64,000 nt of DNA from Escherichia phage vB_EcoM_Goslar: the sequence record NC_048170.1; one strand, given 5' to 3'. Below the pieces are notes generated by a model. The model saw only the letters and a program-made list of their open reading frames with translations, made no database searches and was not told the DNA's origin. Position 1 is the first letter of the stretch; each line of letters opens with the position of its first letter. A program made the translations under genes and the position numbers. This document shows, piece by piece, positions 29,538-64,000 of this stretch.

Positions 29538-31769
29538 TTAGAAAAAACCGCCCGGACGGTATTGACCCATCGTCATCCACGCATTACGAGAAATATTCCG
29601 TTCATTCGAAGAGCGGCTTATTTGACGATAAGTATTCGCTCGTTCCTCCCTTGCTTTCGTGATCATCGCATCAATAGAAACAGCCGCTGAATCTTCCCCA
29701 CGTATTTTTCCTTTATACGTAAGAAGCTCTGCCTCCAATCGATCCAAGATAAGGCCGTTGGTTTCGGTCTTAAGCAACTCATAGATTTCAGCAACGCGTT
29801 GACGAAGCTTCGCCTGCTGTTGGTTAAGATAAGCTTCATACGGATCGATTTCACCCGTCACAGATGCCGGTAAACGACTCATGACTTTAAGCGGATCGAT
29901 ACCATAATGAATCTGTTTCTTAGCGCGCTTGATGAACCACATCGCTAACATCCAGGCGAACGTCATGTCGTCGTGCATTCCATCCTGGTGATCGACACGC
30001 CCATCTTTGATAACCAATCCAAGGATCTCGGAACACAACATCTTATCACGTAATTGCCCGCGGGTTTCTACAATACCTTCCATCAAGATGTCGGAATACA
30101 ACTCCATACGTTTGCGTGCATCCGTTGTGAAGCCCAAATGCCGTTTACGTTGAGCATACCAACTTTCATCACGCATGCTCAATGGTAATTTCAGGTCTTC
30201 GAACATCGCTGGGTTATCAGCATGTCTGTCCACAATTGTGTTGTATACGCGTTTGAATACGTCGATGCCCGCTTGTCTCAGGAACTCTTCAATTGCGTCT
30301 AACAACATGATTGCGCTGCTTTTACGTTCAGGAATCAACGTAACGTTCTTAAAACGCATCATGAAGTTGGCCATCCAACGAGCAAAAGAAAGCAAGCTCA
30401 GTTTATTAAAACGTCCTGTCGCAACAACTTCTGCTGTTTCTACATCCACCATCACCAAACCGATAGCGTCACGACCTATTGCATCGCTGGTGTCTAAACC
30501 AGCAACCACCTTATTGTTCTGCATGTATGTCTCGATTTGACCTCGAGGTATATACCAGTTAATGCAGTAGCCTTCAGGTGAGATCTCGATGTGGTCGATT
30601 TCACGTTGTCCTGCCATGATCATCTCAACCATCTCAGCGGTTAACGGGCTTTCTGCTGAACCGTTGGTCCAGATGTTCATGTAGTCGCGGTCTTTCTGAA
30701 GTTTATCACCTTCCGTTTCGTTCATGGTTTTTGCTAACCATTCATCACTGAATCCCAACTGAGCATGGTTCCATTGTGCCCCGATCCTGACGGTCGCTTT
30801 GCTGAGCTCGCACGGTACGTTGTTCAATACCGTCTGATGCAGATGCTTTTCGTTACGGCAGTCAAAGAAACTTTCAGAGAACGGCGCGGAACGCATGAAA
30901 ACTTCATAAGCCCATTTGCCTTCGCGTTTATCCAATTCACCTGCTGTTGTCGTATAGATGATACTTGTCAGGTCGCCGTTGCTTAATGCTTCATCGCGTG
31001 CCGCACCCATCGCACCGATACCAGCAGGAACAATAATTTCGATGTATTTCGTAAACGCGGTTTCGTCGCTATGGAATAGCGGGGTTGTTAGACCACGGCC
31101 GATGTTTGTTGCTTGTTTCTTATCCGAACGTGGAATCTTTACCGATAACTTGTTCTTGAAACGTGTGTAGGTTACGTTCTCTTTGTTCGATGAATCCCGA
31201 CTATCCAGCGTCCAGAGATACGCAGGTAACAGATCGCGTATACTACGCACGTCTTCTACCGTTTTCGTACGGGCGTCACCGTCTTTTGTTAATTGAATAA
31301 CCTCGGTGTTTCGACTACGAACATAGGTTAGATAACAGAACAGTCCTAACATGGTCATGGATTTACCGGTCTGACGTATCTGTATCTGATACCAGTTCGT
31401 TCGGGTAAATATCCCCCAGAGCATCGGAATGTTACCGCGGTTAGCACGGAATGAAATTTTGTTATCACCCGCTTTAGCCGGAACACGCATCACTTCACGG
31501 AAGAAGTACCATGGATTAAGATAGCATTCCGCACTGATCATCTGAATCTGTTCTGACGTCAAATTCGGTGCGTGGGGATCAACACCAATCAATCTTGGGT
31601 TTAATAACGCCATGAAAAACGCAGAGTTCCGGACACCGAATTCACGACGATACAAGATCGCTAAATCACGCCAACTTGTGTTTGTTGTTTCCCAGTGTGG
31701 AACAGCCTGAGGAAAATAATCCCAATCTTCCTCAAACAGGATGATTTTCTTCGGATCGACAATCGACAT
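29538..31769 (-). CDS. terL: terminase large subunit (T4 gp17-like ATPase plus nuclease)
   Basis: 743-aa ORF; Walker A-like QIRQTGKSMT (cf. T4 gp17 SRQLGKT) and acidic RNase H-like nuclease residues (VDHQDGMHDDMTFAW); GGAGGAG RBS. Confidence 0.75.
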   Translation of the reverse strand: MSIVDPKKIILFEEDWDYFPQAVPHWETTNTSWRDLAILYRREFGVRNSAFFMALLNPRLIGVDPHAPNLTSEQIQMISAECYLNPWYFFREVMRVPAKAGDNKISFRANRGNIPMLWGIFTRTNWYQIQIRQTGKSMTMLGLFCYLTYVRSRNTEVIQLTKDGDARTKTVEDVRSIRDLLPAYLWTLDSRDSSNKENVTYTRFKNKLSVKIPRSDKKQATNIGRGLTTPLFHSDETAFTKYIEIIVPAGIGAMGAARDEALSNGDLTSIIYTTTAGELDKREGKWAYEVFMRSAPFSESFFDCRNEKHLHQTVLNNVPCELSKATVRIGAQWNHAQLGFSDEWLAKTMNETEGDKLQKDRDYMNIWTNGSAESPLTAEMVEMIMAGQREIDHIEISPEGYCINWYIPRGQIETYMQNNKVVAGLDTSDAIGRDAIGLVMVDVETAEVVATGRFNKLSLLSFARWMANFMMRFKNVTLIPERKSSAIMLLDAIEEFLRQAGIDVFKRVYNTIVDRHADNPAMFEDLKLPLSMRDESWYAQRKRHLGFTTDARKRMELYSDILMEGIVETRGQLRDKMLCSEILGLVIKDGRVDHQDGMHDDMTFAWMLAMWFIKRAKKQIHYGIDPLKVMSRLPASVTGEIDPYEAYLNQQQAKLRQRVAEIYELLKTETNGLILDRLEAELLTYKGKIRGEDSAAVSIDAMITKAREERANTYRQISRSSNERNISRNAWMTMGQYRPGGFF

Positions 31770-37221: not shown

Positions 37222-39294
37222 ATGAGGCTTAAGAATAGCACGCCTCGCGCGATTTTTACGGGCTTTAAAGAGGGTCTTACCACGGATCCGGTTACAGCCC
37301 CAGAGATCACGCCCATTCACCTCCCGTATGTTTTCATTCAGGGTGGTCGTGGTAAAGAGGACACCTTGCTGTTAACAGGGGACGCCCTGTCTACAGTCTA
37401 CGGTGAAGATATGCTGAACTACCGCAGTAAGTACGCTTCTCCAGCAACACTGATTGCTCGTCAGGCTGCTTCTACAGGTAGCGCGATCTTCACAAAACGT
37501 TTGGTTGCGCCGGATGCAACGGCAGCACGCATCCGTATCGGTGTTGAAGTGGTCGCCGATAAACTGGTCGTTTACCAGCGTAACGCTGACGGGTCCTTTG
37601 TGAAGGACACGCTCGGCAACAAAATCCCTGACGGCGATAAAACCGTTGACGGGTTGAAAATGCGTTGGGTTGTTAACCACGACAAAGATGCCGAAACACC
37701 TAATGCTTTCGGTAAAGATGAAGTGGTTCTCGGACAACTGACTGCAACTGGTGGTGCCCAGAGCAACTACTATCCTATTCTGGATGGATTGGTGAGCTGG
37801 CGTGGTGCTGAAGGGGACAACATCGGCATACGTCTGGAAGCACCGACCGCGCTGAGCAGTAACCCTACCCGTACCGATATTATCGAACGTATCGGTGCTT
37901 TCCTGTACCGCATTCAGTTCGTGGAACGCAAGTCTTCACGTACTGCGCCGACGGTCATTCGTACGATCAGCGGTATGGAACAAGAAACCTTCGCGTTGCA
38001 GGAAGGTGTTATCCAGCCTGATGACGAAACCGATCTGTCCTTCGGTAAAGTGGTCGTTGACGCCTACGAGTATAATGAGACGGGTAATACCCCGATCTTT
38101 GCTCCGATGGATCAGATGCATCTTTATCAGAAGAACATCGATGACGTCGTCAAGATGCTGTACGAATCTGAACGCAAAGTTAACAACGATCTGTTAACCG
38201 ACGTTGAATTCGTCGAAGGCCAGATGAACATCTTCACCGGTGTTGATTACAACGGCATCCCGTATCAAACCATCGAAGTTCTCGATGCGGATCAGGGCGG
38301 TGCTATCTTCGACGGTACCAGCACCTTCTACGCGATCGATGGTAGTGACGGTGACGTAAACTGGGATACCTTCGATGCGTTAGCGAAGCAGCAGTTCGAA
38401 TCGTTCGGCAACATGGGCGAAGATCTGGAAGACATGGCTTTCTATCCGTTCTCCATCGTGTATGACATTGGTTACAAAGTCGACACGAAGAAAGCGATGG
38501 CAAACGTCTTGTCTCTGCGTCCGGATGTCATGATCATTGCGTCAACCCATACCTGGAAGGGTGTGGAACTGAATGTCGATGAAGAAAGCTCCATGGGCGC
38601 AATGCTGCGTAACTACTACCGTCTGCATCCAGAAAGCGTGCTTTACAATACCCCAGCTTGCCGTGCTGCTGTATTCATGCAATACGGTGAAAGCATCGAA
38701 GCGCCAAGCCTGGGTAAAGTTCCGTTGACGCTGGAAGTTGCTAATAAACTCGCAACTTACATGGGTGCTTCGGATGGTGTTATCCGCGGTACTCGCATCG
38801 ATAACAACCCTGGTAACGTTGTCACAACGATGCGTAAAATCAACAAGACGTATCGTAACGCAACGGTCCGCGATCGTGATTGGGAAAACGGCTTGAACTA
38901 TGTTCAGACCTACAACCGTAATTCCAACTTCTTCCCGGCTTGGGGCACGATCTACAATAACGACCGTTCGGTATGGCGTTCGTTGATCAACGTGATCATC
39001 GGTTGCGATCTGACGCGTGTCTGCTATCGTCTCTGGGCAGAAACCACCGGTACTACAGGAATGGATGAAACGCTGTTCCTGAAACTGATGGGTGAACGCT
39101 TCCTGGAATACACCACGGGTCGTTACAACGACCACGTGACTGTTAAGGGACGTTTCTACCTGGATAAAGAAGACGGCTATAACGGCTTCAGCTATCACGG
39201 CGATATCAGCCTGATCGGCGATCCAGGCATGACCGTGGGTACGTTTACCATCACCGGGCTGCGTCGTAACACCGAAGCAGCAGAAGCGGCGTAA
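37222..39294 (+). CDS. probable tail sheath protein
   Basis: 690-aa ORF with AAGGAGAG RBS, directly followed by a 296-aa ORF and a strong terminator; size and sheath-then-tube arrangement match contractile-tail phages (phiKZ gp29 is about 695 aa). Inference from size and synteny. Confidence 0.5.
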   Translation: MRLKNSTPRAIFTGFKEGLTTDPVTAPEITPIHLPYVFIQGGRGKEDTLLLTGDALSTVYGEDMLNYRSKYASPATLIARQAASTGSAIFTKRLVAPDATAARIRIGVEVVADKLVVYQRNADGSFVKDTLGNKIPDGDKTVDGLKMRWVVNHDKDAETPNAFGKDEVVLGQLTATGGAQSNYYPILDGLVSWRGAEGDNIGIRLEAPTALSSNPTRTDIIERIGAFLYRIQFVERKSSRTAPTVIRTISGMEQETFALQEGVIQPDDETDLSFGKVVVDAYEYNETGNTPIFAPMDQMHLYQKNIDDVVKMLYESERKVNNDLLTDVEFVEGQMNIFTGVDYNGIPYQTIEVLDADQGGAIFDGTSTFYAIDGSDGDVNWDTFDALAKQQFESFGNMGEDLEDMAFYPFSIVYDIGYKVDTKKAMANVLSLRPDVMIIASTHTWKGVELNVDEESSMGAMLRNYYRLHPESVLYNTPACRAAVFMQYGESIEAPSLGKVPLTLEVANKLATYMGASDGVIRGTRIDNNPGNVVTTMRKINKTYRNATVRDRDWENGLNYVQTYNRNSNFFPAWGTIYNNDRSVWRSLINVIIGCDLTRVCYRLWAETTGTTGMDETLFLKLMGERFLEYTTGRYNDHVTVKGRFYLDKEDGYNGFSYHGDISLIGDPGMTVGTFTITGLRRNTEAAEAA

Positions 39295-39309: not shown

Positions 39310-40200
39310 ATGCGTCCTGATAATACCCTACTCGGTGAACAGGGTGTTGGTGCTCTTAGCAACGCGGCTATGGTCGATATTCGTGCAGGTGCCCAAAACG
39401 GGTACATCAGCAATATCGGTACGTACGTTGCTAACGCCAACTACATTCCGAACCAAATGTTCTGTCTCCTGCTGGAGGCACCACGTGGTTTCAACTATCT
39501 ACCTAACCCGGATGTACAGATTGGTTATCTGAAGGCGCTGGTAGAAGAGGTTGCGCATTCGATTACCGGTCTGCAACGCGGATTGGAAGTTGAATTCGTT
39601 AGCGTCCCGGTTTCTGGTTCCGGTGAAATCCAGGAAGAAGTTTCTGACGTTAAACGTCCTCGCTCTAACCCGACTTTCGGGATCTATGAGAAAGAAGGTC
39701 GTTCCGTTAGTTACTTCCTGGAACAATGGATCACGTATCTGTTGATGGATCCGGATGCCAAATATCCGATGTTGTCGTCTATCGTATCCACCGGTGGTCC
39801 AACCGACCTGCTGGCGGATTATCGTAGCGCAACAATGCTGTTCGTTGAACCAGACCGTCAACACAAGAAAGTGGTTAACGCCTGGCTGTGCACGAACATG
39901 ATGCCTCACGGTACCGGTGACTGGACATCACGTCGTAACAAGAACGATGCGCCAAACGTGGTAGAATTGAGCATTCAGTTCACAGCGTTAACACAGACCA
40001 ACTACGGTGTGCGTGCTTTTGCACAACGTCTGCTGGATAAGATGAACCTGCTCAAAGTGAACCCGGATTTCCGTCCGGCTTATCTGAGCGACATCGATCC
40101 TGCTGTGGCAGCGCAGAAGGTTGGCTATACCTTCGACTTTGATAACAACGATACCTTTGAGGTACCGAATACTTATCAAAACGTAACACCTCGCGTGTAA
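39310..40200 (+). CDS. probable tail tube protein
   Basis: 296-aa ORF 15 nt after the sheath-like gene, GAGAGGAG RBS, terminator immediately after. Confidence 0.4.
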   Translation: MRPDNTLLGEQGVGALSNAAMVDIRAGAQNGYISNIGTYVANANYIPNQMFCLLLEAPRGFNYLPNPDVQIGYLKALVEEVAHSITGLQRGLEVEFVSVPVSGSGEIQEEVSDVKRPRSNPTFGIYEKEGRSVSYFLEQWITYLLMDPDAKYPMLSSIVSTGGPTDLLADYRSATMLFVEPDRQHKKVVNAWLCTNMMPHGTGDWTSRRNKNDAPNVVELSIQFTALTQTNYGVRAFAQRLLDKMNLLKVNPDFRPAYLSDIDPAVAAQKVGYTFDFDNNDTFEVPNTYQNVTPRV

Positions 40201-51573: not shown

Positions 51574-51754
51574 TTAGGCTCCACGAGGTCCCGTTAAGTT
51601 GCGTAATAGGAACGCAACCGTATCGTAACCAATATCAATGTTGAATTTATTTTTACCACTTACCCAGAAAGCTCGCTTCTTGTGCGAGTTGGTAATTTCG
51701 TCAATAGCTTCCATGGAATAAAGAACGTTAACCGAGACCGTATCACCGTCGAAC
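51574..51754 (-). CDS. virion-type RNAP beta' N-terminal subunit, proposed exon 2
   Basis: In-frame segment (G)FDGDTVSVNVLYSMEAIDEITNSHKK...GPRGA* aligns with E. coli [20 protein letters not shown]; a stop lies 3 codons upstream, so the exon must begin here; it ends 3 nt before the beta gene ATG. Confidence 0.5.
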
Positions 51755-53807
51755 CTTGTCTTCGCCTCAGGTCGCTACGCTGAGACCGCCTGCATGGATA
51801 CGTACATCACAGGCTGCTTGCACTTTCATGCAAGAGGAGACTATATCAAACCGTCAGCTTCACTTTCTCGATCATATCGAGAATGCGGCGCTGAAGTATT
51901 CTTCAGCAGCACCTGTTACGGTAACCTACACTTCGAAGACGCTTGTCCTCTACAGGGTGGTAAATCCCTTAGTCGTTGAACCTGCGTTGTTTCACATTCT
52001 TACAACCAAGAATGCCGTATTGCTACGCAATAACCAGGCTGCTGATTGCCCATTGTCTCGCACCTTAGCACCGCTTACGCGGCTTTTCTTTCAGCCTAAG
52101 CCTCTTACGGAGGTAGTGCATCTCAACTGTTGTTTCTGCCTTTCGGCACCTCATGGGTCGTTGAGCTTTAGGGGTTCCCAGCAATTCGTAGGTTTTTCAA
52201 GCACTCCCTTTCAGGAATACCGGACCTTATAGAAAAGCTATTTATTCAAGTATCTGAAATCCCACTTATCCTTACGTCTATTATCGCACTTGATGTCAGG
52301 ATGTCTAACACGGTGTTGAATCGTAGTCGCTGGTAATTGACTCACATTCACAGCCGATTTCGCGCCAAGAACAATTGTTTTTGTGTTGTCCGGACGAGTA
52401 ACTTCTACCGCTCGATGATGTTTACGTAACACATCACGCCAATACTCACGCCGTTCCGGTTCCGCGTATTCGAGCATATAACCGTTGGTATCGACCAGAC
52501 CGTAACTCTCGTTTAAACGAGAGGTGGCGGCTGGTCTACTAATACCAATCGCTTTAGCCGCGTCAACCACGGTTTTATACGGGGTCTCATTACCGTCTCT
52601 ATCTACAACCACAATAAAATCTGGACGCGAATCGAGCAGCTGCTGTCTTCGTTCAAGGGCTTGTTGATGAAGCACCTTATTAACATGTTCGAACCCGTAA
52701 CCTTCTGGACCGTGCCACCCTGGATTGTTATTCGCTCGATAAAGTATCGTCGCAGATTTCACTCCCGTCTGACGTGACGCCTCGTTCGCACTATGGACAA
52801 CCGTGGTAGTGCCATCAGGGTGATATATCCGTATCTGGTTCATTATACCAGAACCAACGAAATTACCATCAGCTGATTTAATGTCCGGCCAGGGTTGTGG
52901 ATCATCTTTGAATTTAACCACCCAACGGTTGTTAAACAATTTGACTTTCCGAGCATGTTTACCTAATGTCGTGTCTGTAACACCGGCTACAGCAGAGGCT
53001 TGCGCGATACTAGGATATTCCGTGACCACATCTTCTTCAGTATCCCAAAGGAGAACCGGTTTGTTATCATCACGTAGTCCGGTCTCAACCGCATGTAGAA
53101 TATTTCTAAGGCGGGTTGCCCATTCTAGATTGTCTAACGCGTAATTCCACTTATCGCCATCAAGATGGTTAACGTCCATCCTATCGACATCAGCCGGATA
53201 ATCTTTCCACGCTAAGAGCAGACAGCGATGAAGCGATCTTCTCTGGGATTTAAATCGGCAATCATGCTGCATACTAACGAAAACATAGCTATCGTCAACA
53301 CACCAGTGAGGACACTGACGGCCAGTAATACGGTTGATGATTCTACCTTTCCGGTTGGCCAAATAACGAGTGTGTCCGGGAATGACACGATAACCTGGGT
53401 ACTTAGCGATTTCGTAAGCAGGCTCGAACCGATAGGATAAATTATCAACATCCCAGTTAGATTCGTCACCATCAACAAACATCGCTTTGACGTATTTCTG
53501 TGTTTCAATATCAACCAGGATGTTTTTGTGTGCGATACAAATCAATGCTGGGATATTGAATTCGCGACCGGCTATGATAACCGTGTCGCCATTTCTCGGT
53601 ACCTCGACGTGGGTATCGCGATACCGTAAGTTTCCATAGCCGTCTATTTCAATCCAGCTTAAAAACGGAATGGGTATAAACTCTTTTTCAGATACTCGCC
53701 ATTTAAACATTTCAATACCTATTAATTACCACTTTCATATTAATAGGTTTAAAAGTTAAATTTGCCAGAAAACTGGCATTTTGTTAGCCTTTCCTTGATC
53801 ACCGCCA
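51755..53807 (-). mobile_element. group I intron (about 2.05 kb) in the vRNAP beta' gene, HNH ORF in the P1 loop
   Basis: Minus-strand elements: exon end CCGGACU (plus 53808..53814) pairs with IGS GGUCCGG (52220..52226) with U-G at the splice site; P AAUUGCUGGGAA (52175..52186); Q AAUCAGCAGCC (52037..52047); R GUUCAACGACUAAG (51968..51981); S UUGAUAUAGUCUCC (51836..51849). Intron ends in G at 51755. 5' splice site could instead be at 53798. Confidence 0.55.
52238..53710 (-). CDS. HNH homing endonuclease (intron-encoded)
   Basis: 490-aa ORF with HNH motif DRMDVNHLDGDKWNYALDNLEWATRLRNILH, similar to the HNH in the other RNAP intron; lies between the beta' exon 1 and the intron core. Confidence 0.8.
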   Translation of the reverse strand: MFKWRVSEKEFIPIPFLSWIEIDGYGNLRYRDTHVEVPRNGDTVIIAGREFNIPALICIAHKNILVDIETQKYVKAMFVDGDESNWDVDNLSYRFEPAYEIAKYPGYRVIPGHTRYLANRKGRIINRITGRQCPHWCVDDSYVFVSMQHDCRFKSQRRSLHRCLLLAWKDYPADVDRMDVNHLDGDKWNYALDNLEWATRLRNILHAVETGLRDDNKPVLLWDTEEDVVTEYPSIAQASAVAGVTDTTLGKHARKVKLFNNRWVVKFKDDPQPWPDIKSADGNFVGSGIMNQIRIYHPDGTTTVVHSANEASRQTGVKSATILYRANNNPGWHGPEGYGFEHVNKVLHQQALERRQQLLDSRPDFIVVVDRDGNETPYKTVVDAAKAIGISRPAATSRLNESYGLVDTNGYMLEYAEPERREYWRDVLRKHHRAVEVTRPDNTKTIVLGAKSAVNVSQLPATTIQHRVRHPDIKCDNRRKDKWDFRYLNK

Positions 53808-55264
53808 AGTCCGGCGAGGTATGGCGCAGGGACAATAGTAGTTTCTACGAACGAGGCATTAGGTAACCAGTCGGGGTATTCCCACGCAATAAATCGCTCA
53901 TCCGTTATTGGTTCCCAGTTACTATCAAGTTCAGTTTTCGGTTTTGCTGCAACGGTCGTACGCGCGTAACAGGTTAACGGAATGACGGATTGCATACCCG
54001 ATACCGGATAACGTGTTACCATTGCAGCCAGGTTATTCCAGTATTTATATCCTGCGATATACACTAATTCGGTATACGTGATAGGGTGAACATCTGCACC
54101 AGGTTTGTTAAGCATCTCCGGAGGTAATTCACTCATACCACGGAATAACCGAAACGAATCATTGTTCACATAGACAAGACAAAGATATCGTCCATTAACC
54201 ATGATAGGTTCGTTACGCACACCCGGATCGCTTAAGGTGTTCAGTAAGCGTTCTATTCCGTCCCAGGTTGTAAAGTCATCGATGGTGTCTGGATCAAGCG
54301 TGACGCGTTCACGTTCCATCGTTTCGGTATCAATAAGTTCAACTTCTGTAACATCACGGACAAATATTTCCTGCAAAATCCCCGTACGTAATGCATGTTG
54401 CGTTACAGGGAGAGCAGCTTTACTCATCTGGTATAACCCTAACTGAACCGCGGTACAGGAAGGCTGGTTAGGCGACCCTAGTACCTCCGTTGTGGGGTTA
54501 ATTGCTGAAATAACGTTACGGGTTGAGTTCCAAACGCGACGTGAACCAAACTTACCTTGGAAGATCCCTTTCTTACCTTGGAACATATCCAACAACAAAG
54601 CGTAGATATCGTTAAATGTTCTCTGTAAGCTCCAGCGCTGGCCGTCGTAAACGGGATCAGAATAATCTTTTAATCCATCGGGGACGGTGTTAGAAATTGC
54701 AAGGAAACGACGATACAACTCTGTAATCTCTTGCTCGCTTTCATACCCGCCTTCTTTTACTTCTATTTCACGTAAGCCTGCAGGCAATACCAGTAAGTGA
54801 CGGGTCATCGCTTTGAACATGTTCTCTTCGACAACTTTAATTCGTAGCTCTCGTTGAGCTGAGCCCGTTGAAACGAACTTGATATCCGCGACGTGTTGTG
54901 CAAAGAACCCGTATCCTGTTTGTCCTGTTAACGCATCAGACGCAACGAAGTCGCGTTGTTCAGGATCCCAACGAGCGTACGCCTTCCCCGACATGATATC
55001 ACCATAGAGGTGTTTTAGTCGAATGAGGCGGTCGTAAATGACAGGGTGCAGGATTTCAACTTTACATTCAATCACCGCAAATCGACGGTCTCGATCTTCA
55101 CTACCCGCACTACCAAAGATGGTGTAAGAATAGAAACCATCATCGTGGAAATTACCGGTGCTTGGGTCACGAATGCTCATGCTCGTGATCTTGGGGAGAA
55201 AACGTAACTGCTGTTTATCGAGGTGTAAAATGCTAATGTTAAACGGCTCTCTGACTTTAGCCAT
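53808..55264 (-). CDS. virion-type RNAP beta' N-terminal subunit, exon 1 (phiKZ gp178-like by position); start trimmed
   Basis: Beta' motifs RFAVIECKVEILHPVIY (cf. RMGHIELAAPVAHIWF) and FQGKKGIFQGKFGSRRVWNSTRNVISAINP (cf. [27 protein letters not shown]). ORF track gives 53756..55306; ATG at 55264 has an AGAGGAG RBS; 3' end set at the P1-predicted splice site. Confidence 0.65.
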
Positions 55265-55509
55265 GGAGACACTCCTCTTTACCACCACCGGCTGCGGCGG
55301 TATCATCTGAACACACGAGAGACGTAATGGGTGATGGCGTCACCCATCGCTTCCTTGCTTGAGGCGAGGAAGTTATTAGGTTACGTACCTGCGTGATAAA
55401 ATCAAGCAGGCGATGTGTGAAGTTACGCTTCAACATTATCAATGCCGAAGGTAAACTTCGTGCATCACGTTCCAACGTAACATGGGAACGTATCGAACTG
55501 GAGGTATAC

Positions 55510-58500
55510 ATGGTAGATAAAACCCGTGTTGAGGGTGATGATAATTGGGATAACTGGGATGAAGACTTCTCCCTGGATCTCGATTTTAACGAACCCAAAG
55601 ACGATCGTAAACCGATAACACGCTTTGCGATAGGAGCGGTTAAAGGTGCTGCTGAGGATCTTACTTCCTACGAAAGAATGAAGGAGATCGCCAGAAACGC
55701 ATTGCCTAAGGGCTACAGCGACGGTATGGATCTTATCGATTCCGCCGTCGGATCCACGAAGGAACTATACAATGAAGCCGTTCGTGACGTTCTTCCTAAG
55801 GTCCAAAGCTCAAAACGGTTAGCAGCACAACTGACCAAGAAATACCGTGCGAGCATGCCCGATTTCTCGAAGAAAATTCTTGAGCAATGGGAGCGAGAAG
55901 CCAAGGAAGAAGACGAACGTAAACAAGCTGAAGAAGCCCTTCGTCAACGCATGGCGAGCGCGGGGGACGATGAGATCGCCCGCAAGGTTGCCGAGGCATT
56001 AGGCGAATCAGCAAACCAAAGCGCGGATCAGTTTGCTGAACAGCAAGCGAAAGAAAGTATCCGTGACGATATCGCTGACAAACGGTACGCTGTAACCAAC
56101 AAACAAATGAGTGCGATGCAAGAAGGCGTCGCCAAGATGGTTGGTTTCAACAATGAATTCGCTGCACGCTACATGCGTAAAAGCCTGGAACTGAAATATC
56201 GTTCCTTAGCGATTCAACGTGCAAGTTTCGATCAGCATAAAAAGTTAGCCGAAGTCTATATCGGTCTATTACAAAACATCCAGAAGAATACGGCTTTACC
56301 TGATGCAGCTAAAGCGAAGATGTCGGAAGAATTCCGTCGTAGTGCATACCAACGTTTCTTTGGTAATGCGTTAGATGCGATGGGTTCTTTCGAGAACCGT
56401 TTCTTTGCCGATGTTAAGAAGAACCTCGCCACCAACGCATTAGGTGCTTTAAAAGGCGTCGTGTCTGGCGCAAACGATGCGTTATACGGTTTAAACGAAG
56501 CACGTGACTCGATGTCCATGATGGACGGGATGGGGTCAGAAGGCGATATTAAGGAAATGCAAGGAAGGATGTTGGGTCAGTTCATTGGCTCAACTGTCGC
56601 GCCGTGGATGGCTAATAAAGGCAGGATGGCGTTACGCGATTTAGCAAAACGTCACCCCAATGCTAAATTCGCAGGTGCGTTAAAAGCCGTGGATCAAGGT
56701 GGTGAGGCTGCCGCTTACACGACGCGTAATCTCGGTAAACTGCTCCAGGAAGATATTCGTAAGAACGAATTCAATCTTAGCGATCCATTTTACAAGCAAT
56801 TGTTACGCGGCGCAGGGCGTTGGGCGTTCAACATGGACAGCGGACGTAACTTCCGTGTGATGAACGACACCGCTGAAACACTGGCAGAGCAAACATCTTT
56901 CGACGGTTTAACCTACCGCAGCATCAACGAGGTTATTCCGGGCTTTCTTGCACGCATTCTGAAAAGCAGTGAGGGTATCCGCACCGGAAACAGCGATCCT
57001 GACTACGAGGTCTATGACGGCATCAGCGGGCAATTCGTGGCTCAGCGCACGCGCGAACAAAGCGTCAACGACACGCTGTTTAACAAACGTTCGTTTGGTT
57101 ATTACGCAAGCCGTTTCAATGAGGTTATCTCGGTCATCGATCCCGATAAACAATTATCGGAAAAAGCCAGAAAGGCGCTGGCCAAGCAGTTGGCACGAGA
57201 TAGCGACGCAAACATTGCATTCGACCCAGCTCGTTTTACGGATGAAAGCAACTTCGATCGTAGTATCGACCGTGACGCTATTAAGGAACTTTCCACATAC
57301 TTTCGAGACCGTTACGGTATTCGTGATGATGTCAACGATAAGGGCGAACGTCATCAGGTCATTGGAAACCGCGGGCAATATTACACGGAACGTAACCGAG
57401 CTGACCTTCGCTACGGAAATCTGAAATCGTTACAACCGGATATTCAGCGTAACCTTAACCTACTGAAACGTACTGGTGACGTCCAATATCTGGAACGTAT
57501 CGGTATCGTAACGAGAAATAGCGACGGAAGCTACTCAGTTAATCACGATCGGTATTTCTCTGAAATCGATCGATACATCGACCGACCGGAGTACGCTGAC
57601 CGCGGCGATGTTAATACGCGATTAACCGCTCAGGAAACAAGAGCGCTGGCGTTGGGTTATCGTGACGCAAAACCATCAACTGGTGACGTCCAAAATGCGG
57701 GTCTGCCGAACATCGATCGTAAGGCTGCTGGAACAGTAACCGTTGATGAAAACATCGGCTACGATAAATGGTGGAACGACGCTGGCGTTATCACTACATC
57801 GCTTGAAGAACAGAATCGAGCATGGCAAGAACTCTATCTCGAAGCGTTATCTGAAGCATCCGAACAACGTGTCGAAATGCTTGCGTTGCTGAAAGCCATT
57901 TCTGAGAAAGACTGGTCTAATAACGTTTCGCTGGATGGTGAAGACGTACCTGAAGGTGCAGCGCCCATTTCATTTATCGATCGCGCCAAACAAAAACTCG
58001 GCGGACGCAACCTCTTTAAAGGTGGCCGTAATCTCCTCTGGAAAGGAATTAAAAATACCGCACGATTGGGTGTTAAAGGCGCACGTTGGGGTGCAGAACG
58101 TACATTAGGTAGTTTGGTAAATTCCGGCCGACGTATTATCAATTTCAACCGTTTTGTGTTCGGCGCATTATCCAAGGTCGATCAGGTTCCGTTTGACATT
58201 TACGTTAAAGGGGAATCCCAACCACGCATACTGGCTGCCAAACTTCGTCAGGGGTTATACTTCGACGAGGCGACAGGAAAAGCCGTAAAACGGATGAAGG
58301 ATATCAAAGGCCCACTCGTTGATGCGGATGGAAACGTCGTAATCAGCAACGAGGATATCGAGAAAGGGCTGGTCACTCGCGCTGGTCGTGCCTTTGAGAA
58401 TTCAGGACTTAAGGCGTGGGCGCATGAAGGTCTTAATGGAATAACGACGGTATTAAGTCTGCCACGGATGTTAAAACGCGGTGCGGTTGAGATCTACAAA

Positions 58501-61500
58501 CAGCTTGACAGAACACCCGACGTTTACGTCAAGGGAGAATCAACGCCTCGTCTATTATCCATGGTGTTAGCAGCGGGTGGGTATTTCCGTCGCTCTGATG
58601 GGCAAGTCATCAAAAATCTTGAAGACATCGATGGTGATGTTGTTGATGCACAAGGTAACGTCGTACTTACGCTTGCCGACATGCAGAAAGGACTTGTCGA
58701 TAAATACGGTAAAGCGATTCGTCGCTTAAAAGAAAAGCTCATCAACTTCGGTGTGAAAGCTTTCACGTTACCGTTAACCTTACTACGCAAGACAAAGGAC
58801 ATCCTTAAAGCCCTTCCAGGTAAAACCGTTAACGGTCTACGACGGATGGGATTAAATTTCCAATCACCTGACGCATTACTGGTGGGAACAACGTCGAGCA
58901 TGGTAGATCGGCTCGATGCGATTTACCAGCTTCTTGACCAGCGTATGCCGGGTGGTGATAAGGATTACCGCGATTGGGATGGCGATGGTGTTCGAGAAGG
59001 ATCGTTGGAAGACCTGAAACGTAAACGTGCAGCCAAGGAAAACGGTGAGGATGACGCAGGCAAAGATTCCAATAAAGGGGAAGAAAAGGAGAAGAAACGA
59101 GGATTACTCGGAAGCCTTTTCGATATGCTCGGCGATACCGCATTAGGTAAACGCCTCATGGCGAGTCCGCTTGGAAAAATTCTAGGTGGTCTTGGGGCGG
59201 TGTTAAGCGGCGGTGCATCGTTAACCGGGTTGTTGGGCAAAGGTCTCATTAGAGGAACCGGTGCACTGGTCAAGGGAGGACTAAGTGCGGCAGGATGGTT
59301 AGGACGTGGTGCGTTAATGGCGGGCGGGGCCGCATTGAACGCCGTTGGTGGGTTATCGGGATTAGGTGCATTCCTCATCTCACCTGTTGGGCTTGCTATC
59401 GCTGGCGGCGCATTGGCTGCTTATGCTGGATGGAAGATCTATCAGCATTTCGCCGAGAAGCCTGACCCGATGCAGAAGCTCCGTCTTATCGCATACGGTG
59501 TAAAAGGTGACGATAAAGACTTCAATAAGAAGCTGCTTGCGACAGAAACATACCTCACCGACCATGTGGTTATGACCGGGGATACCATCGGATTCGATCC
59601 GAAAGCCGATTCTGAAAAGATTCTCGAAATCTGGGAATTGTCCCTGGAAGATTCCGACCGAATGAACGAATGGAAACGTTGGTATCTACATCGTTTTATT
59701 CCTGTTTTCGCTCGTGCGTACAAACTCTGGAAAGAGCATATGCCGGACGAGAAGAAATACATGGAAATGGATAAATATCCAAACGGTGAGAACAAAGTGA
59801 AATGGTCGGAAGCGTTTATCTGGCCTTCCGATAGTCCTGATGGTCCGTATTACGTCGAAGCTAACCCGTTGGGTTCTTCTGGTGCGACGCGTTATATTGC
59901 TGGTCAAGACGTCAAAACCTTGATGCTGAAACAACTCGAAGCCATCAAGAAAGAGTACCAGAATCAGATTAAGCAATACTCTCATGATGAGGCTATTGCT
60001 GATTGGTCACGGATGTCTGACACACAACGTAAATCCGTTGCGCCTAACGCATTACGCGGTCAGAAAGCGTCGTTACGTTTTAACGATAAACGTTACAACA
60101 GTGCTGGCGCTAAAGGACGACAGAAACTGGATGCAACCGCGGTTATTGAAAGCGTAGACCGCCGCGGCAGGAAATGGGTTGCCGGTGGATACATCGATGA
60201 ACTCACCAGTCTCCGTGTTCGCGCGTACGGTATCAAGGTTCCGTTGTTAAGCCAGATAAAAGTGCTGATGGAACTTGAAGACGCTGTAGAACCTGGCGTT
60301 GTCGCTGAAGGTAAAGGTGTTAAATACGGTGGCGATCTTGTCGCGCTCTACAAGAAATTCGCGACGAAGTTCGGAAGAGACGTTAACAGCAAGCATGATC
60401 AGGATATCTGGTTTGCTTGGATGAATAACCGTTTCCTGCCCGTCTTTTTAACCTATTACCAACAAGTTAGCGAAATGGGCGGTCAAGGACTTCTGTCCGA
60501 CGTGGTACAGAACCTGAAAGACAGCCAGCGTTGGGAAATCGGTGAAGCACTTGTCGCAACGCAATACCGTGATGAGAAAGGTGCATTACAGCCTGTATGG
60601 TCGTGGAACAGTTGTGGTTTCTCCGGTACTGAAGCTAACACCACCAGCAGTTCAACAAAGAGCCAACTCGATCTGTTAAAAGAATATGCGGATAAAGAGA
60701 AGGTTCGTGAGAAGAACGCGGAAGCATCGCAAGAGGATACCGATAAATTATCGAAGATCCAAGAGCTGATGATGAAGCAGGCTGGGTACGAGAAGAAAGA
60801 CGGTGTCTGGCAGAAGAAATCTCGCATTACTGGTGGGATGAGTAACTCCGAAGCGAATTACAACCCCAATGGGAATAAGGTCGGTGCAAGCAGCTTTACT
60901 GCTTCGGCTACTTCCAATGCGGGATTGGGATCAACCGGCGATCTTACTGGATTGCCTAACATGGGCTTACAGAAACCGGCAACGGGACCGGGTCCTGAAG
61001 CTGGACGTCGTGCGCTTGTTAAATCCGCTGTAAAACGCGGTATTACCGATCCAATGGAAATGGCGATGTTCCTTGCGAACATCGAACATGAATCGGGGAA
61101 CTACACTCACGTACGTGAGGGGAACTATAAGACACCTGAGCGTCTTAAACAGGTCTTCCCTTACAAATTCCGTGATGTGCAGGATGCCGCACAGACGATC
61201 AGCATGGGGCCGGAAGCGGTATTCGAACGTGTGTATGGTAATCGTAAAGACCTAGGAAACACACAGAAAGGAGACGGGGCGAAGTATTTAGGACGTGGAT
61301 TCATTCAGGTTACCGGTAAAGCTAACTACGCTCGTCTGTCTAAGACCTTGAATAAGGATCTTGTCAGCGATCCGACATACCTGGAAACGCCGGAAGGTGC
61401 AGCGGAAGGTAGTGTTGCATGGTGGCTCAACCGAGGTAACGTATTACGCGATCCCGCAAAACGGGGTGACGTGCGCCAAGTTCGTTATCTGGTTAATGGT

Positions 61501-62175
61501 GGCTATAACGGATTACGTGATGTTGAACAACGTTCTGCATATTGGATTCAGGCGGCTAAGAATGGCACCCTGAAGAAAATGATGGACGAGTTATCAGGGT
61601 CAACATCAGACGATCAAGCTGAAGGACCGACCACTGCCGAACAGGTGAAGAACGAAGCAGCACAAGAGGCAAACGGAACACCAGCTGTAAGCAACGATCC
61701 GCAAGCCCCAGTATCTTCTACTACCCCTGAAGCTAAACCGTCTGCAGCTGCCGGGACGGCCCCAGCACCTGGAGAAGCATCACCAACGCCTGGAAGTTTC
61801 GAAACAGCAAAAGCCGCGGCAGGACAACCGACATCAACTCCAGCACCTAGCGATTTGCCGTCAAACCCGGGCGCAAATCGAGGGATATCGGTTCCGAATA
61901 CGCCTGCACAGGTTGCACAGTCTGCGACACAAACGTCGGCTGCAAGTGAGAACTTCTACGGTAGCGCAGGTGAAATTCTCCGACAGCAGCTGACCACGCA
62001 GCAGAACATCGAGAAGAACACCGGTAGAACGAATGAACTTATTTCGGAATTAATCCAAGCCGTTAAGGGTTCTTCTATCGGTAAGGGTTCTGCAGGTCCT
62101 TCTCAACAACAGACGATGTCGCTACCTAATCGTCCGCAAGGAATCTCTCCAACACGGACAAGGTACGCACAGTAG
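55510..62175 (+). CDS. giant virion-associated peptidoglycan hydrolase with C-terminal GH19 domain (phiKZ gp181-like); start trimmed
   Basis: ORF track 55393..62175 (2260 aa); ATG at 55510 follows CUGGAGGUAUAC. C-terminal GH19 signatures FLANIEHESGNY, YLGRGFIQVTGKANY, VAWWLNRG (about 61000..61570); Gly/Ala-rich hydrophobic segment (about 59160..59450). Confidence 0.8.
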   Translation: MVDKTRVEGDDNWDNWDEDFSLDLDFNEPKDDRKPITRFAIGAVKGAAEDLTSYERMKEIARNALPKGYSDGMDLIDSAVGSTKELYNEAVRDVLPKVQSSKRLAAQLTKKYRASMPDFSKKILEQWEREAKEEDERKQAEEALRQRMASAGDDEIARKVAEALGESANQSADQFAEQQAKESIRDDIADKRYAVTNKQMSAMQEGVAKMVGFNNEFAARYMRKSLELKYRSLAIQRASFDQHKKLAEVYIGLLQNIQKNTALPDAAKAKMSEEFRRSAYQRFFGNALDAMGSFENRFFADVKKNLATNALGALKGVVSGANDALYGLNEARDSMSMMDGMGSEGDIKEMQGRMLGQFIGSTVAPWMANKGRMALRDLAKRHPNAKFAGALKAVDQGGEAAAYTTRNLGKLLQEDIRKNEFNLSDPFYKQLLRGAGRWAFNMDSGRNFRVMNDTAETLAEQTSFDGLTYRSINEVIPGFLARILKSSEGIRTGNSDPDYEVYDGISGQFVAQRTREQSVNDTLFNKRSFGYYASRFNEVISVIDPDKQLSEKARKALAKQLARDSDANIAFDPARFTDESNFDRSIDRDAIKELSTYFRDRYGIRDDVNDKGERHQVIGNRGQYYTERNRADLRYGNLKSLQPDIQRNLNLLKRTGDVQYLERIGIVTRNSDGSYSVNHDRYFSEIDRYIDRPEYADRGDVNTRLTAQETRALALGYRDAKPSTGDVQNAGLPNIDRKAAGTVTVDENIGYDKWWNDAGVITTSLEEQNRAWQELYLEALSEASEQRVEMLALLKAISEKDWSNNVSLDGEDVPEGAAPISFIDRAKQKLGGRNLFKGGRNLLWKGIKNTARLGVKGARWGAERTLGSLVNSGRRIINFNRFVFGALSKVDQVPFDIYVKGESQPRILAAKLRQGLYFDEATGKAVKRMKDIKGPLVDADGNVVISNEDIEKGLVTRAGRAFENSGLKAWAHEGLNGITTVLSLPRMLKRGAVEIYKQLDRTPDVYVKGESTPRLLSMVLAAGGYFRRSDGQVIKNLEDIDGDVVDAQGNVVLTLADMQKGLVDKYGKAIRRLKEKLINFGVKAFTLPLTLLRKTKDILKALPGKTVNGLRRMGLNFQSPDALLVGTTSSMVDRLDAIYQLLDQRMPGGDKDYRDWDGDGVREGSLEDLKRKRAAKENGEDDAGKDSNKGEEKEKKRGLLGSLFDMLGDTALGKRLMASPLGKILGGLGAVLSGGASLTGLLGKGLIRGTGALVKGGLSAAGWLGRGALMAGGAALNAVGGLSGLGAFLISPVGLAIAGGALAAYAGWKIYQHFAEKPDPMQKLRLIAYGVKGDDKDFNKKLLATETYLTDHVVMTGDTIGFDPKADSEKILEIWELSLEDSDRMNEWKRWYLHRFIPVFARAYKLWKEHMPDEKKYMEMDKYPNGENKVKWSEAFIWPSDSPDGPYYVEANPLGSSGATRYIAGQDVKTLMLKQLEAIKKEYQNQIKQYSHDEAIADWSRMSDTQRKSVAPNALRGQKASLRFNDKRYNSAGAKGRQKLDATAVIESVDRRGRKWVAGGYIDELTSLRVRAYGIKVPLLSQIKVLMELEDAVEPGVVAEGKGVKYGGDLVALYKKFATKFGRDVNSKHDQDIWFAWMNNRFLPVFLTYYQQVSEMGGQGLLSDVVQNLKDSQRWEIGEALVATQYRDEKGALQPVWSWNSCGFSGTEANTTSSSTKSQLDLLKEYADKEKVREKNAEASQEDTDKLSKIQELMMKQAGYEKKDGVWQKKSRITGGMSNSEANYNPNGNKVGASSFTASATSNAGLGSTGDLTGLPNMGLQKPATGPGPEAGRRALVKSAVKRGITDPMEMAMFLANIEHESGNYTHVREGNYKTPERLKQVFPYKFRDVQDAAQTISMGPEAVFERVYGNRKDLGNTQKGDGAKYLGRGFIQVTGKANYARLSKTLNKDLVSDPTYLETPEGAAEGSVAWWLNRGNVLRDPAKRGDVRQVRYLVNGGYNGLRDVEQRSAYWIQAAKNGTLKKMMDELSGSTSDDQAEGPTTAEQVKNEAAQEANGTPAVSNDPQAPVSSTTPEAKPSAAAGTAPAPGEASPTPGSFETAKAAAGQPTSTPAPSDLPSNPGANRGISVPNTPAQVAQSATQTSAASENFYGSAGEILRQQLTTQQNIEKNTGRTNELISELIQAVKGSSIGKGSAGPSQQQTMSLPNRPQGISPTRTRYAQ

Positions 62176-62185
62176 TCATTAGTTA

Positions 62186-62206
62186 AGGGCGGGAATCTCC
62201 CGCCCT
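62186..62206 (+). terminator. hairpin terminator after the giant virion protein gene
   Basis: agggcggga-atc-tcccgccct followed by cttcttg. Confidence 0.45.
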
Positions 62207-62224: not shown

Positions 62225-64000
62225 ATGGGTATTCTTGTTCAAAACGCCCTAATTACCAAACAAGCGTTTTTATTACCAGGCGATAGCAGCACGCTTAGTG
62301 CCGACATGATTAAAGCGAGACATACACCGTATTCCTACGATAACGTCGATGATACCACCTTAGGTGGGAACTGGGTGCTTAACCCACCGCCGCAATATAC
62401 CAAATTTGCCGACATCAAAGAACGCCGACGTGCGGTTATGCCGGGATCAACGGGCATGGGTCGAGGCTATAGTGAAAGCATTAACAGCTTTAAAGAGGTC
62501 GTTACGTTACGATTCGGTAAACCTCGCTTTACAGGCGCAAGTATCTTCTTTACTGATTTCTACGATGCGGATGTTGCCGTAACGGTTAAAACCGGTCGCG
62601 ATCCCGGTATCCTTTATTACGCAGCCAAAGCGTATACCACCGTTCTTTCTTACCTCACACCTCTACCCTACTTGTATATGGTTGGACGTATTGGTCGATA
62701 TTTCCTGGGTAAGCCTACCAGTCAATATTACTATCAAGTACCAACCATGCATGTGTATTGGGCGTCTTTCCAGACGCTGGTAAACCAAACAGCGATAAAC
62801 ATGGGTCTTATCGCCGGTGCCGGTAAAGATAAAGGCTACGTGGAAGAAGGAGGTACCGTACTCCATCAATATTCAATCGGTGGTCAGAACGTTGAAGAAT
62901 TCATCAACTACGCGTCTAAGACGCTACCTGGGATTTATAAGAAAGGTGGTGGGATCGATATCTACCAGATTGCAACACGTCGTCAGCGTATACAGAACGC
63001 ATGGGTACGTCGTATTCAATCCATGATGGAAAACGATTACTCGTCTTACGAAGAATTCTGGAACGATCTTGATAAACGACTTGATAGCGGAGCGTTTCCA
63101 TCGGATGTAACCGGCCGTACGCTAACGCAGTATCTCGCCGACACACAGAAGTCTGCTGTTTACAGCGCGACAGCTGGTGATAATAAACAAACGATGGACG
63201 ACCTTTTATTCGGAAGGGCCTCGTACACCAATAAAGATGCTGACGCCAACTTCAATGTCTCAGCGGCTACCTCCGACGGAGGTACGTCAACACAGAGTCA
63301 GGGTACAACAGCCAATGTCGGTAATTCAACGTCAGGGACAACACAGGCTTCAACAGCAGCATCAACAGCTGGAGGCGCGAACGTACAGAGCAAAGGAATC
63401 GGGCAAACGAACGCAGCCGAAGAAGCTACGTTTCTTGATCTGATGGATGCTGAATTGGCCGACGGTGCTCAGTTCATCAGTTTTCGAGTCGATTCTGTCA
63501 CCAGTGTAACCGAAACGTTTTCAAACAGCGCTTCAGAAAGTTCTATCGCGCAGACGATGAACAGTCGTGCGCAAGCGAACATCGAACGTCGTTTCACCCT
63601 CTCCGGTGGTAATACCGGTTGGGCTGTACTGGACGAAGCCATCAAAGCCGGTTCCGACCTCGTCAATGGTGCTATTTCCGGGATGGGTCTGGATGGTATT
63701 TTTGGTGCCTTCATGGGTTCCGGCTTCGCTGACATTCCGAAATTCTATTCTGGTTCATCGGTAAGTCTTCCGCGTGCAGATCTGACGATGGAATTACGTT
63801 CCTGGAGTGGGGATCGCTGGTCGATCTTTACGAACCTCATGGTACCTCTTTTAGCGATCCTTGCAGGCGGTTTGCCTCAGGCTACCGGTAAATCGTCCTA
63901 CGGGATGCCGTTCATGTGTGAGTGTTATATTCCCGGTAAAGTCCAGATTAAAATGGGCCTTATCGACAACATCACTGTGACGCGTCATGTTGGAAACGTG
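62225..64000 (+). CDS. hypothetical protein (likely virion structural), N-terminal 592 codons; continues beyond window end
   Basis: Open frame from ATG at 62225 (MGILVQNALITKQAFLLPGD...) to the window edge without a stop; co-oriented with the giant virion protein. Confidence 0.6.
   Translation, partial: MGILVQNALITKQAFLLPGDSSTLSADMIKARHTPYSYDNVDDTTLGGNWVLNPPPQYTKFADIKERRRAVMPGSTGMGRGYSESINSFKEVVTLRFGKPRFTGASIFFTDFYDADVAVTVKTGRDPGILYYAAKAYTTVLSYLTPLPYLYMVGRIGRYFLGKPTSQYYYQVPTMHVYWASFQTLVNQTAINMGLIAGAGKDKGYVEEGGTVLHQYSIGGQNVEEFINYASKTLPGIYKKGGGIDIYQIATRRQRIQNAWVRRIQSMMENDYSSYEEFWNDLDKRLDSGAFPSDVTGRTLTQYLADTQKSAVYSATAGDNKQTMDDLLFGRASYTNKDADANFNVSAATSDGGTSTQSQGTTANVGNSTSGTTQASTAASTAGGANVQSKGIGQTNAAEEATFLDLMDAELADGAQFISFRVDSVTSVTETFSNSASESSIAQTMNSRAQANIERRFTLSGGNTGWAVLDEAIKAGSDLVNGAISGMGLDGIFGAFMGSGFADIPKFYSGSSVSLPRADLTMELRSWSGDRWSIFTNLMVPLLAILAGGLPQATGKSSYGMPFMCECYIPGKVQIKMGLIDNITVTRHVGNV

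Follow-up and report, generated by a model that had tools for sequence, protein, structure and literature searches.

A giant gp181/gp239-type protein of Escherichia phage vB_EcoM_Goslar is probably a tape-measure-like tail lysin

Results

A 2221-residue protein is encoded at 55510..62175

In a 64,000-nucleotide (nt) stretch of the genome of Escherichia phage vB_EcoM_Goslar (NC_048170.1; the whole stretch is referred to below as the window), the open reading frame at 55510..62175 on the plus strand encodes a protein of 2221 amino acids (aa), as had been stated in an earlier interpretation made from the letters and their translations (the sequence-only reading). The sequence-only reading had described a virion protein that combines a C-terminal GH19 lysozyme domain, a glycine- and alanine-rich hydrophobic segment and an internal tandem repeat, and had proposed that it is an ejected, cell-wall-degrading inner-tail protein. 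Judged by sequence, architecture and gene order, the Goslar gene is an orthologue of phiKZ gp181 and SPN3US gp239, and its product is probably a multi-domain tail protein, best understood as a tape measure that occupies the lumen of the tail tube and is ejected when the phage infects. The elements of the gene and its flanks are as follows; models are from AlphaFold2 (AF2) and profiles are hidden Markov models (HMMs).

55500..55504, plus strand: Shine-Dalgarno-like GGAGG, 5 nt 5' of the ATG (direct sequence reading)
55510..62175, plus strand: Goslar giant tail protein gene, gp181/gp239-type (open reading frame and translation, 2221 aa)
55612..56829, plus strand: long predicted alpha-helices, tape-measure-like part, aa 35-440 (AF2 model, conserved columns)
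56905..57654, plus strand: compact alpha/beta domain, aa 466-715 (AF2, pLDDT 84-94; no recognised fold)
58186..58389, plus strand: repeat R1 copy 1, core aa 893-960; full 108-aa unit at 58195-58518, aa 896-1003 (HMM, self-alignment)
58510..58713, plus strand: repeat R1 copy 2, core aa 1001-1068; full unit at 58519-58824, aa 1004-~1105 (HMM, self-alignment)
59152..59442, plus strand: Gly/Ala/Leu-rich hydrophobic 'glycine-zipper' stretch, aa 1215-1311 (hydropathy, composition)
59440..59979, plus strand: domain D2 copy 1, aa 1311-1490, HMM core 1321-1420 (HMM, AF2)
60190..60819, plus strand: domain D2 copy 2, aa 1561-1770, HMM core 1565-1661 (HMM, AF2)
61015..61551, plus strand: GH19 endolysin-type muralytic domain, aa 1836-2014 (PDB sequence matches, alignment to 9eoi)
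61552..61914, plus strand: Ala/Pro/Thr/Ser-rich low-complexity linker, aa 2015-2135 (composition A 23, P 17, T 13, S 13 per 121 residues)
61915..62172, plus strand: C-terminal tail, aa 2136-2221 (family alignment consensus; C-terminal alignment of 21 diverse members)
62186..62206, plus strand: GC-rich hairpin (GGGCGGGA/UCCCGCCC) followed by CUUCUU, 11 nt past the stop codon (RNA fold)
62225..64000, plus strand: gp182-type baseplate spacer gene, cut by the window end (27% identity to PA7 gp186, E 1e-51; phrog_3181 at 8e-140)

The Goslar protein belongs to the gp181/gp239 family

The PHROG family phrog_3201 matches aa 11-1174 of the Goslar protein at 6.1e-295, and the N-terminal 1200 aa match 280 jumbo-phage records, with phiKZ-like Pseudomonas phages giving a coverage of about 80%. 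BLASTP against the orthologue from phage PA7 (YP_009617475) aligned aa 35-693 at 1e-45 and aa 887 onward at 2e-36, and in this alignment R1, the Gly-rich hydrophobic stretch and D2 are in register. Because order and size agree, the PA7 giant gene is taken as the counterpart of phiKZ gp181, and its neighbour as that of gp182; PA7 served as the proxy for phiKZ gp181 in the comparisons made here. The PA7 orthologue is like the Goslar protein in length (2241 vs 2221 aa), in gene neighbourhood and in the order of its modules, namely a helical N-terminus, a domain at aa ~470-700, R1, the hydrophobic stretch, a pair of D2 domains, an enzyme slot that lies some 200-350 aa before the C-terminus, and a tail; however, the two are only about 24% identical, and PA7 carries three R1 copies rather than two and an SLT lytic transglycosylase in place of GH19. 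SPN3US gp239 (2372 aa) belongs to the same family, shares its synteny with Goslar and is the one whose place in the tail is directly supported by proteomics, but it is more distant: tblastn covers aa 29-483 only, the enzyme is an SLT domain and a simple R1 HMM finds one copy.

Gene order agrees with this assignment. The giant gene is divergent from two genes for beta-type subunits of the virion RNA polymerase (RNAP), which are preceded by a head-protease block, and it is followed by the gp182-type gene; in phiKZ, gp182 forms a hexameric ring, the 'spacer', in the central baseplate (PMC13250141). The same order, with protease, structural genes, two RNAP-beta genes, divergent giant gene and gp182-like gene, is found in PA7 and SPN3US.

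The modules themselves were followed across the family, in which R1, the hydrophobic stretch, two D2 domains, a muralytic slot and the C-terminal tail occur in the same order. An R1 HMM detected the repeat in 95 of 101 family members, with 1-6 copies each, D2 was present in 92 of the 101, usually twice, and the hydrophobic stretch occupied the same relative position in 79. R1 consists of a ~65-aa beta-rich core, with copies about 119 aa apart (the median spacing in 226 full-length members), and D2 is a helical domain of ~180-210 aa. When an R1 profile built from 36 units was searched against 1.84 billion representative proteins, 1271 proteins matched at E <=0.001, such that at least 1271 clusters at 50% identity contain the module; among the best 150 matches nearly all proteins are about 2000-3400 aa long and have two to six copies. 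The number of R1 copies correlated weakly with total protein length (rho 0.24 in the same 226 members).

Of the family modules, the enzyme slot alone is exchanged. It holds SLT in PA7 (aa 1889-1982) and SPN3US gp239 (aa 1983-2071), GH19 in Goslar and in 29 of 238 sampled family members, and M23, CHAP, phage-lysozyme-2 or VanY in others according to precomputed Pfam matches. GH19 occupies the same slot of the same giant protein in the Erwinia Ea35-70 / Deimos-Minion group (annotated as 'putative lysozyme domain protein'), Ralstonia RSL2, Burkholderia FLC9, Salmonella SA002 and Proteus phage 10, although these isolate proteins have an overall identity to the Goslar protein of about 25% only. The GH19 domains of these proteins are the best phage matches to the Goslar GH19 domain, at 40-45% identity, and the GH19 version is thus already common among isolates. 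The closest relatives of the whole protein are metagenomic (98%, 89%, 88% and 47% identity), and megablast of the 6.7-kb gene and of 24 kb of nearby sequence returned no near-identical match among 50,697 phage records. Looking up the exact protein sequence in a contig index likewise gave no match. R1, the hydrophobic stretch and D2 are thus features of the whole family, none of them peculiar to the Goslar protein; the three features to which the sequence-only reading drew attention do exist, but they are family hallmarks and do not set this protein apart.

Internal duplications, hydrophobic stretch and predicted domains

The sequence-only reading had recognised two tandem units of 109 aa. The two-unit repeat was recovered here as R1, with 60-residue cores (aa 896-955 and 1004-1063) that are 52% identical and an extended alignment of 39% identity over 104 columns (E 8e-23), but the period is 108 aa and not 109. 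Self-comparison, which had been suggested as a check, gave a score of 105 for the best 40-residue diagonal window, whereas 20 shuffles reached 45 at most. At the DNA level the units are heavily diverged, and Tandem Repeats Finder reported only three trivial 9-11-bp arrays; a repeat that is visible in the protein but not in the DNA indicates that the duplication is old. In AF2 models the R1 cores form small beta-rich domains (pLDDT 80-86 for copy 1 and 82-88 for copy 2), and the best match of the R1 profile to PDB sequences had an E of 0.26.

A second internal duplication, D2, was missed by the sequence-only reading. The D2 copies share the motif LRxxAYG...WxxWxxxRFxPVF, and aa 1319-1405 and 1563-1651 are 28% identical (32.3 bits; shuffled sequences reached 23.1 at most). 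AF2 predicts two confident helical domains at these positions (pLDDT 85-98), for which no structural relative was found in the PDB.

Upstream of the GH19 domain, and ending 528 aa before it, lies the glycine-zipper-like stretch that had been pointed out previously. It is the sole region of the protein in which the 19-residue Kyte-Doolittle mean reaches >=1.0, and it contains 26 G, 18 A and 19 L per 96 aa together with 24 [GAS]xxx[GAS] motifs. Uncharged runs extend over aa 1224-1243 and 1278-1308, a Lys/Glu-rich stretch precedes the whole region, and hydropathy suggests two to three candidate membrane-spanning segments; AF2 leaves the region unstructured (pLDDT about 30).

The N-terminal part, modelled over aa 1-1200 from a 52-sequence alignment (mean pLDDT 59.7), is predicted with low to moderate confidence to form long helices at aa 67-115, 118-207, 214-260 and 266-314, which reach up to 90 residues (pLDDT mostly 35-80) and are accompanied over aa 35-440 by the conserved motifs ALPKGY, QRKSLELQYR-like and KNTALPD. 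The alpha/beta domain that follows at aa 466-715 holds the best-conserved motif of the family, IPGxLARI...IRTG. The second model, of aa 1201-1840, had a mean pLDDT of 69.5. Apart from GH19, nothing credible came out of Pfam and NCBIfam scans, whether of the whole protein or of seven segments taken one by one; matches to Talin_R4 (19 bits, cut-off 27), DUF7173 and DfrA26 were rejected as noise, and the non-enzymatic 90% of the protein matched no Pfam family or solved structure.

The GH19 domain has an intact active site but is not terminal

The GH19 signatures claimed by the sequence-only reading were borne out. Residues ~1836-2014 match solved GH19 endolysins at values from 1e-22 to 1e-16 (9eoi, 1.2e-22; 7r6s, 2.7e-21; 9ms6, 5.8e-20; 4ok7, 1.1e-17), and PHROG 181 ('endolysin') matches the domain at 3.8e-53. 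In PaGH19Lys the active site comprises H50, E51, E60, Y103, Q127, T129, I187, N188 and R197, and the E60Q mutant is nearly inactive (PMC12329726). In the alignment to 9eoi the Goslar equivalents are H1860, E1861, E1870, Y1909, Q1933, T1935, V1995, N1996 and R2008, such that all nine positions are kept with one conservative change (Ile to Val), and HESx7E is conserved within the clade of the Goslar protein. As far as sequence can tell, the Goslar GH19 active site is intact.

The placement of the enzyme as the C-terminal domain did not hold, however, as ~207 aa follow it. These comprise the low-complexity linker and the C-terminal tail, for which the family alignment gives the pattern (Q/K)QLxVQ...helix...PxxPVxM-like end. 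A simple HMM of the tail built from close relatives found the close clade and PA7 only, and the family-wide conservation of the tail is therefore read from the alignment pattern alone. By analogy with T5 Pb2, the tail is a candidate anchor to the baseplate hub.

Discussion

A probable tape measure that carries a muralytic domain

The proposal of an ejected, cell-wall-degrading inner-tail protein finds its support in the orthology to phiKZ gp181 and SPN3US gp239, through which a virion location and ejection would be expected for the Goslar protein as well. SPN3US gp239 was detected in virions by mass spectrometry, was missing or >10-fold depleted in tailless particles and was called the tail tape measure protein by its authors (PMC5105663, PMC10052503). 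In phiKZ, orf181 (6,714 bp) is essential according to published data, and muralytic activity of gp181 is recorded in a review (PMC5380687). The giant gene lies beside a central baseplate gene of the gp182 type, a position expected of a tape-measure gene, and glycine zippers are found in other tape measure proteins. A recent atlas of the phiKZ virion (2026) assigns the spike to gp164/gp163.1, the hub to gp101 and the spacer ring to gp182, and neither mentions nor models gp181 (PMC13250141); its absence would be expected if the protein lay concealed within the tube lumen with a symmetry that does not match. The phiKZ tail is 2000 Å long with a lumen of about 68 Å (PMC13250141), and by a rough estimate from these dimensions three to six chains of ~244 kDa would occupy roughly 12-25% of the lumen volume, so that space is no obstacle even with folded domains.

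In the mechanism that these observations suggest, the long N-terminal helices and the aa 466-715 domain would scaffold and measure the tube during assembly, while the C-terminal tail would anchor the protein at the baseplate hub, beside the spacer ring encoded by the adjacent gp182-type gene. After sheath contraction the C-proximal GH19 domain would leave the tube first and hydrolyse peptidoglycan locally, and the Gly/Ala-rich stretch may then insert into a host membrane and help to form a conduit for the DNA, as has been described for T5 Pb2 and T4 gp29. The R1 repeats and D2 domains are possibly spacers or modules that interact with the envelope.

By analogy, the Goslar protein would act in the manner of T5 Pb2, a muralytic tape measure with which it shows no sequence kinship. 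In Pb2 a muralytic domain comes after a hydrophobic stretch that could form two transmembrane helices, and the tip holds the last 35 residues of the protein; unlike the Goslar protein, Pb2 is 1219 aa long, carries a metallopeptidase and belongs to a non-contractile tail, and no sequence relationship between the two was detected. T4 gp29 is the tape measure of a contractile tail and is reported to form an inner-membrane channel for DNA entry, but it is far shorter and has no muralytic domain (the T4 lysozyme is on the spike protein gp5), and again no sequence relationship was detected.

Several points weigh against a tape measure with these activities. For phiKZ gp181 the tape-measure role has been published as 'likely' only, neither the PDB sequence matches nor the phiKZ atlas (PMC13250141) include a structure that shows gp181 in the tube lumen, and the location, ejection, activity and membrane insertion of the Goslar protein are argued from orthology or analogy. 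A tail of ~200 nm needs a helical ruler of ~1300 aa at 1.5 Å per residue, and the protein is far longer; moreover, the AF2 confidence of the long N-terminal helices is low. The hydrophobic stretch is of low complexity and interrupted by Lys and Arg, and might be a flexible linker instead of entering a membrane. The Pfam GH19 model PF00182 stays under its gathering score of 25.5 bits, with 18.3 bits for the whole protein and 23.7 for the isolated domain; this model describes 'Chitinase class I' and aligns only ~40 core residues of the Goslar domain, and close relatives of the protein have no precomputed Pfam GH19 match either. Finally, the label that PHROG and RefSeq give to the family is 'tail fiber protein', and no Pfam, NCBIfam or PHROG tape-measure family matches the protein, although the latter weighs little because tape measures are not one homologous family.

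Other roles for the giant protein

By analogy with T4 gp5, phiKZ gp181 was originally proposed to puncture the cell as a needle in the middle of the baseplate. The description 'needle-like cell-puncturing device, putative trimer' persists in reviews and genome papers, with reference to Briers 2008 and Fokine, and the lysozyme-type domain is shared with T4 gp5; however, in the phiKZ atlas gp164 forms the spike and gp163.1 the tip, gp101 is the hub and gp182 the spacer, and gp181 is not modelled (PMC13250141), which leaves this reading already largely refuted for phiKZ. For the Goslar protein, the AF2 models of aa 1-1840 contain long helices and small globular domains but no OB-fold or beta-helix, and a hydrophobic glycine zipper is not a feature of spikes, making a needle quite unlikely. 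It is similarly improbable that the protein is packaged in the head as an ejection protein of the inner-body type that carries a lysin, rather than lying in the tail lumen. The gene does adjoin those for the head protease and the virion RNAP, and passages of the SPN3US papers describe many large ejection proteins in the heads of phiKZ-like phages, but the next gene is of the gp182 baseplate type, and SPN3US gp239 is >10-fold depleted in particles that have a head but no tail and falls into one group with the proteins of sheath and baseplate.

Two functions written into database records fare worse. A tail fibre, the annotation of phrog_3201 and of many RefSeq records, is very unlikely: the label is an annotation and not a test, the AF2 models of aa 1-1840 show no fibre-like beta-structure, a muralytic domain and a hydrophobic segment are present, the phiKZ atlas makes no mention of gp181 where it describes twelve peripheral fibers (PMC13250141), and the curated record of Klebsiella phage Miami already names the protein a tape measure. 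Aeromonas and Vibrio phage records would instead make it an endolysin for lysis from within, and several read 'putative endolysin' or 'chitinase'. The GH19 domain does belong to the endolysin subfamily, yet the enzyme accounts for no more than about 8% of the protein, orthologues of the giant protein are structural components of the tail and phiKZ has a separate endolysin, gp144, so we give this role hardly any weight. The widespread annotations 'tail fiber protein', 'endolysin' and 'chitinase' are probably misleading.

Significance for the family

As a probable tape-measure-like tail lysin, the Goslar protein is an ordinary though poorly understood member of the known gp181/gp239 family. The exchange of SLT for GH19 is already represented in many isolates, and the Goslar gene itself adds little because GH19-carrying gp181-type proteins occur in many sequenced jumbo phages. 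A by-product of the analysis is a domain map of a large family that is essential in phiKZ yet missing from the published virion atlas and from Pfam, consisting of a helical, ruler-like N-terminus, the aa 466-715 domain, R1 in variable copy number, one glycine zipper, two D2 domains, a muralytic slot (SLT, GH19, M23, CHAP or VanY) and a C-terminal tail. In the searchable literature, neither this map (variable-copy R1, duplicated D2, the aa 466-715 domain and the C-terminal tail) nor the modules' want of recognisable structural relatives was found to be reported, which is a modest point at the level of the family; the map offers concrete targets for work on tail-length control and envelope penetration in phiKZ-like phages. 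R1 and D2 are strongly conserved, confined to the gp181/gp239 family among the top profile matches and have no solved structural relative. A bolder and unlikely extension is that they are new folds for crossing the Gram-negative envelope, that the copies of R1 tune periplasmic reach or tail length, and that in nucleus-forming phages the glycine zipper helps to shape the inner-membrane-derived early infection vesicle and does not merely form a pore.

Translation start, flanking signals and neighbouring genes

The mechanically defined open frame of the giant gene spans 55393..62175 on the plus strand and begins at GTG 55393, 39 codons ahead of ATG 55510; the stop codon is at 62173-62175. The N-terminus that begins at ATG 55510 (MVDKTRVEGDDNWDNWDEDF...KDDRKP) agrees with the N-terminal consensus of 51 homologues, whereas in the 98%- and 89%-identical relatives (P0001, P0002) gene callers added 31-38 N-terminal residues from upstream GTG codons. 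Because both the GGAGG box and the family consensus fit it, ATG 55510 is the likely translation start. Downstream of the gene, a 61-nt stretch with the hairpin at 62186..62206 folds at -22.1 kcal/mol (z -3.06); the hairpin was not flagged by a simple consensus terminator scan and is a possible terminator or RNA-stability element. The promoter and terminator scan as a whole gave fewer matches than in shuffled sequences, and is uninformative because the phage has its own RNA polymerases. A match to the ribosomal S15 leader inside the coding sequence (56241..56346, plus strand; Rfam 25.6 bits where the gathering score is 39.5, E 0.017) is almost certainly due to chance.

Elsewhere in the window, a DNA polymerase and several phage-type RNAP beta subunits are encoded, along with the following genes:

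11003..12898, minus strand: nuclear shell protein (chimallin-type)
29538..31769, minus strand: terminase
37222..39294, plus strand: tail sheath
39310..40200, plus strand: tube-like virion protein

From the genes for the nuclear shell protein, sheath, terminase, DNA polymerase and RNAP beta subunits, the window is identified at the sequence level as that of a nucleus-forming, phiKZ-like jumbo phage.

The gene for the phiKZ gp180-type RNAP subunit, upstream of the giant gene, is interrupted by a group I intron at 51754..53797 on the minus strand (Rfam RF00028, 67.7 bits, E 1e-15), with the intron core at 52245..51817 (minus strand) and an open reading frame for an HNH homing endonuclease inside the intron at 53710..52238. 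The exons lie at 55306..53798 and 51753..51589 on the minus strand; residues 1-490 of the PA7 RNAP subunit map to 55264..53798 and residues 491-545 to 51753..51589. Judged against the uninterrupted PA7 gene, the break falls within the catalytic GADFDGD motif (GAD|FDGD), and the mechanically listed open reading frame 53756..55306 is exon 1 running on into the intron. A comparable intron endonuclease has been reported for other phiKZ-like phages.

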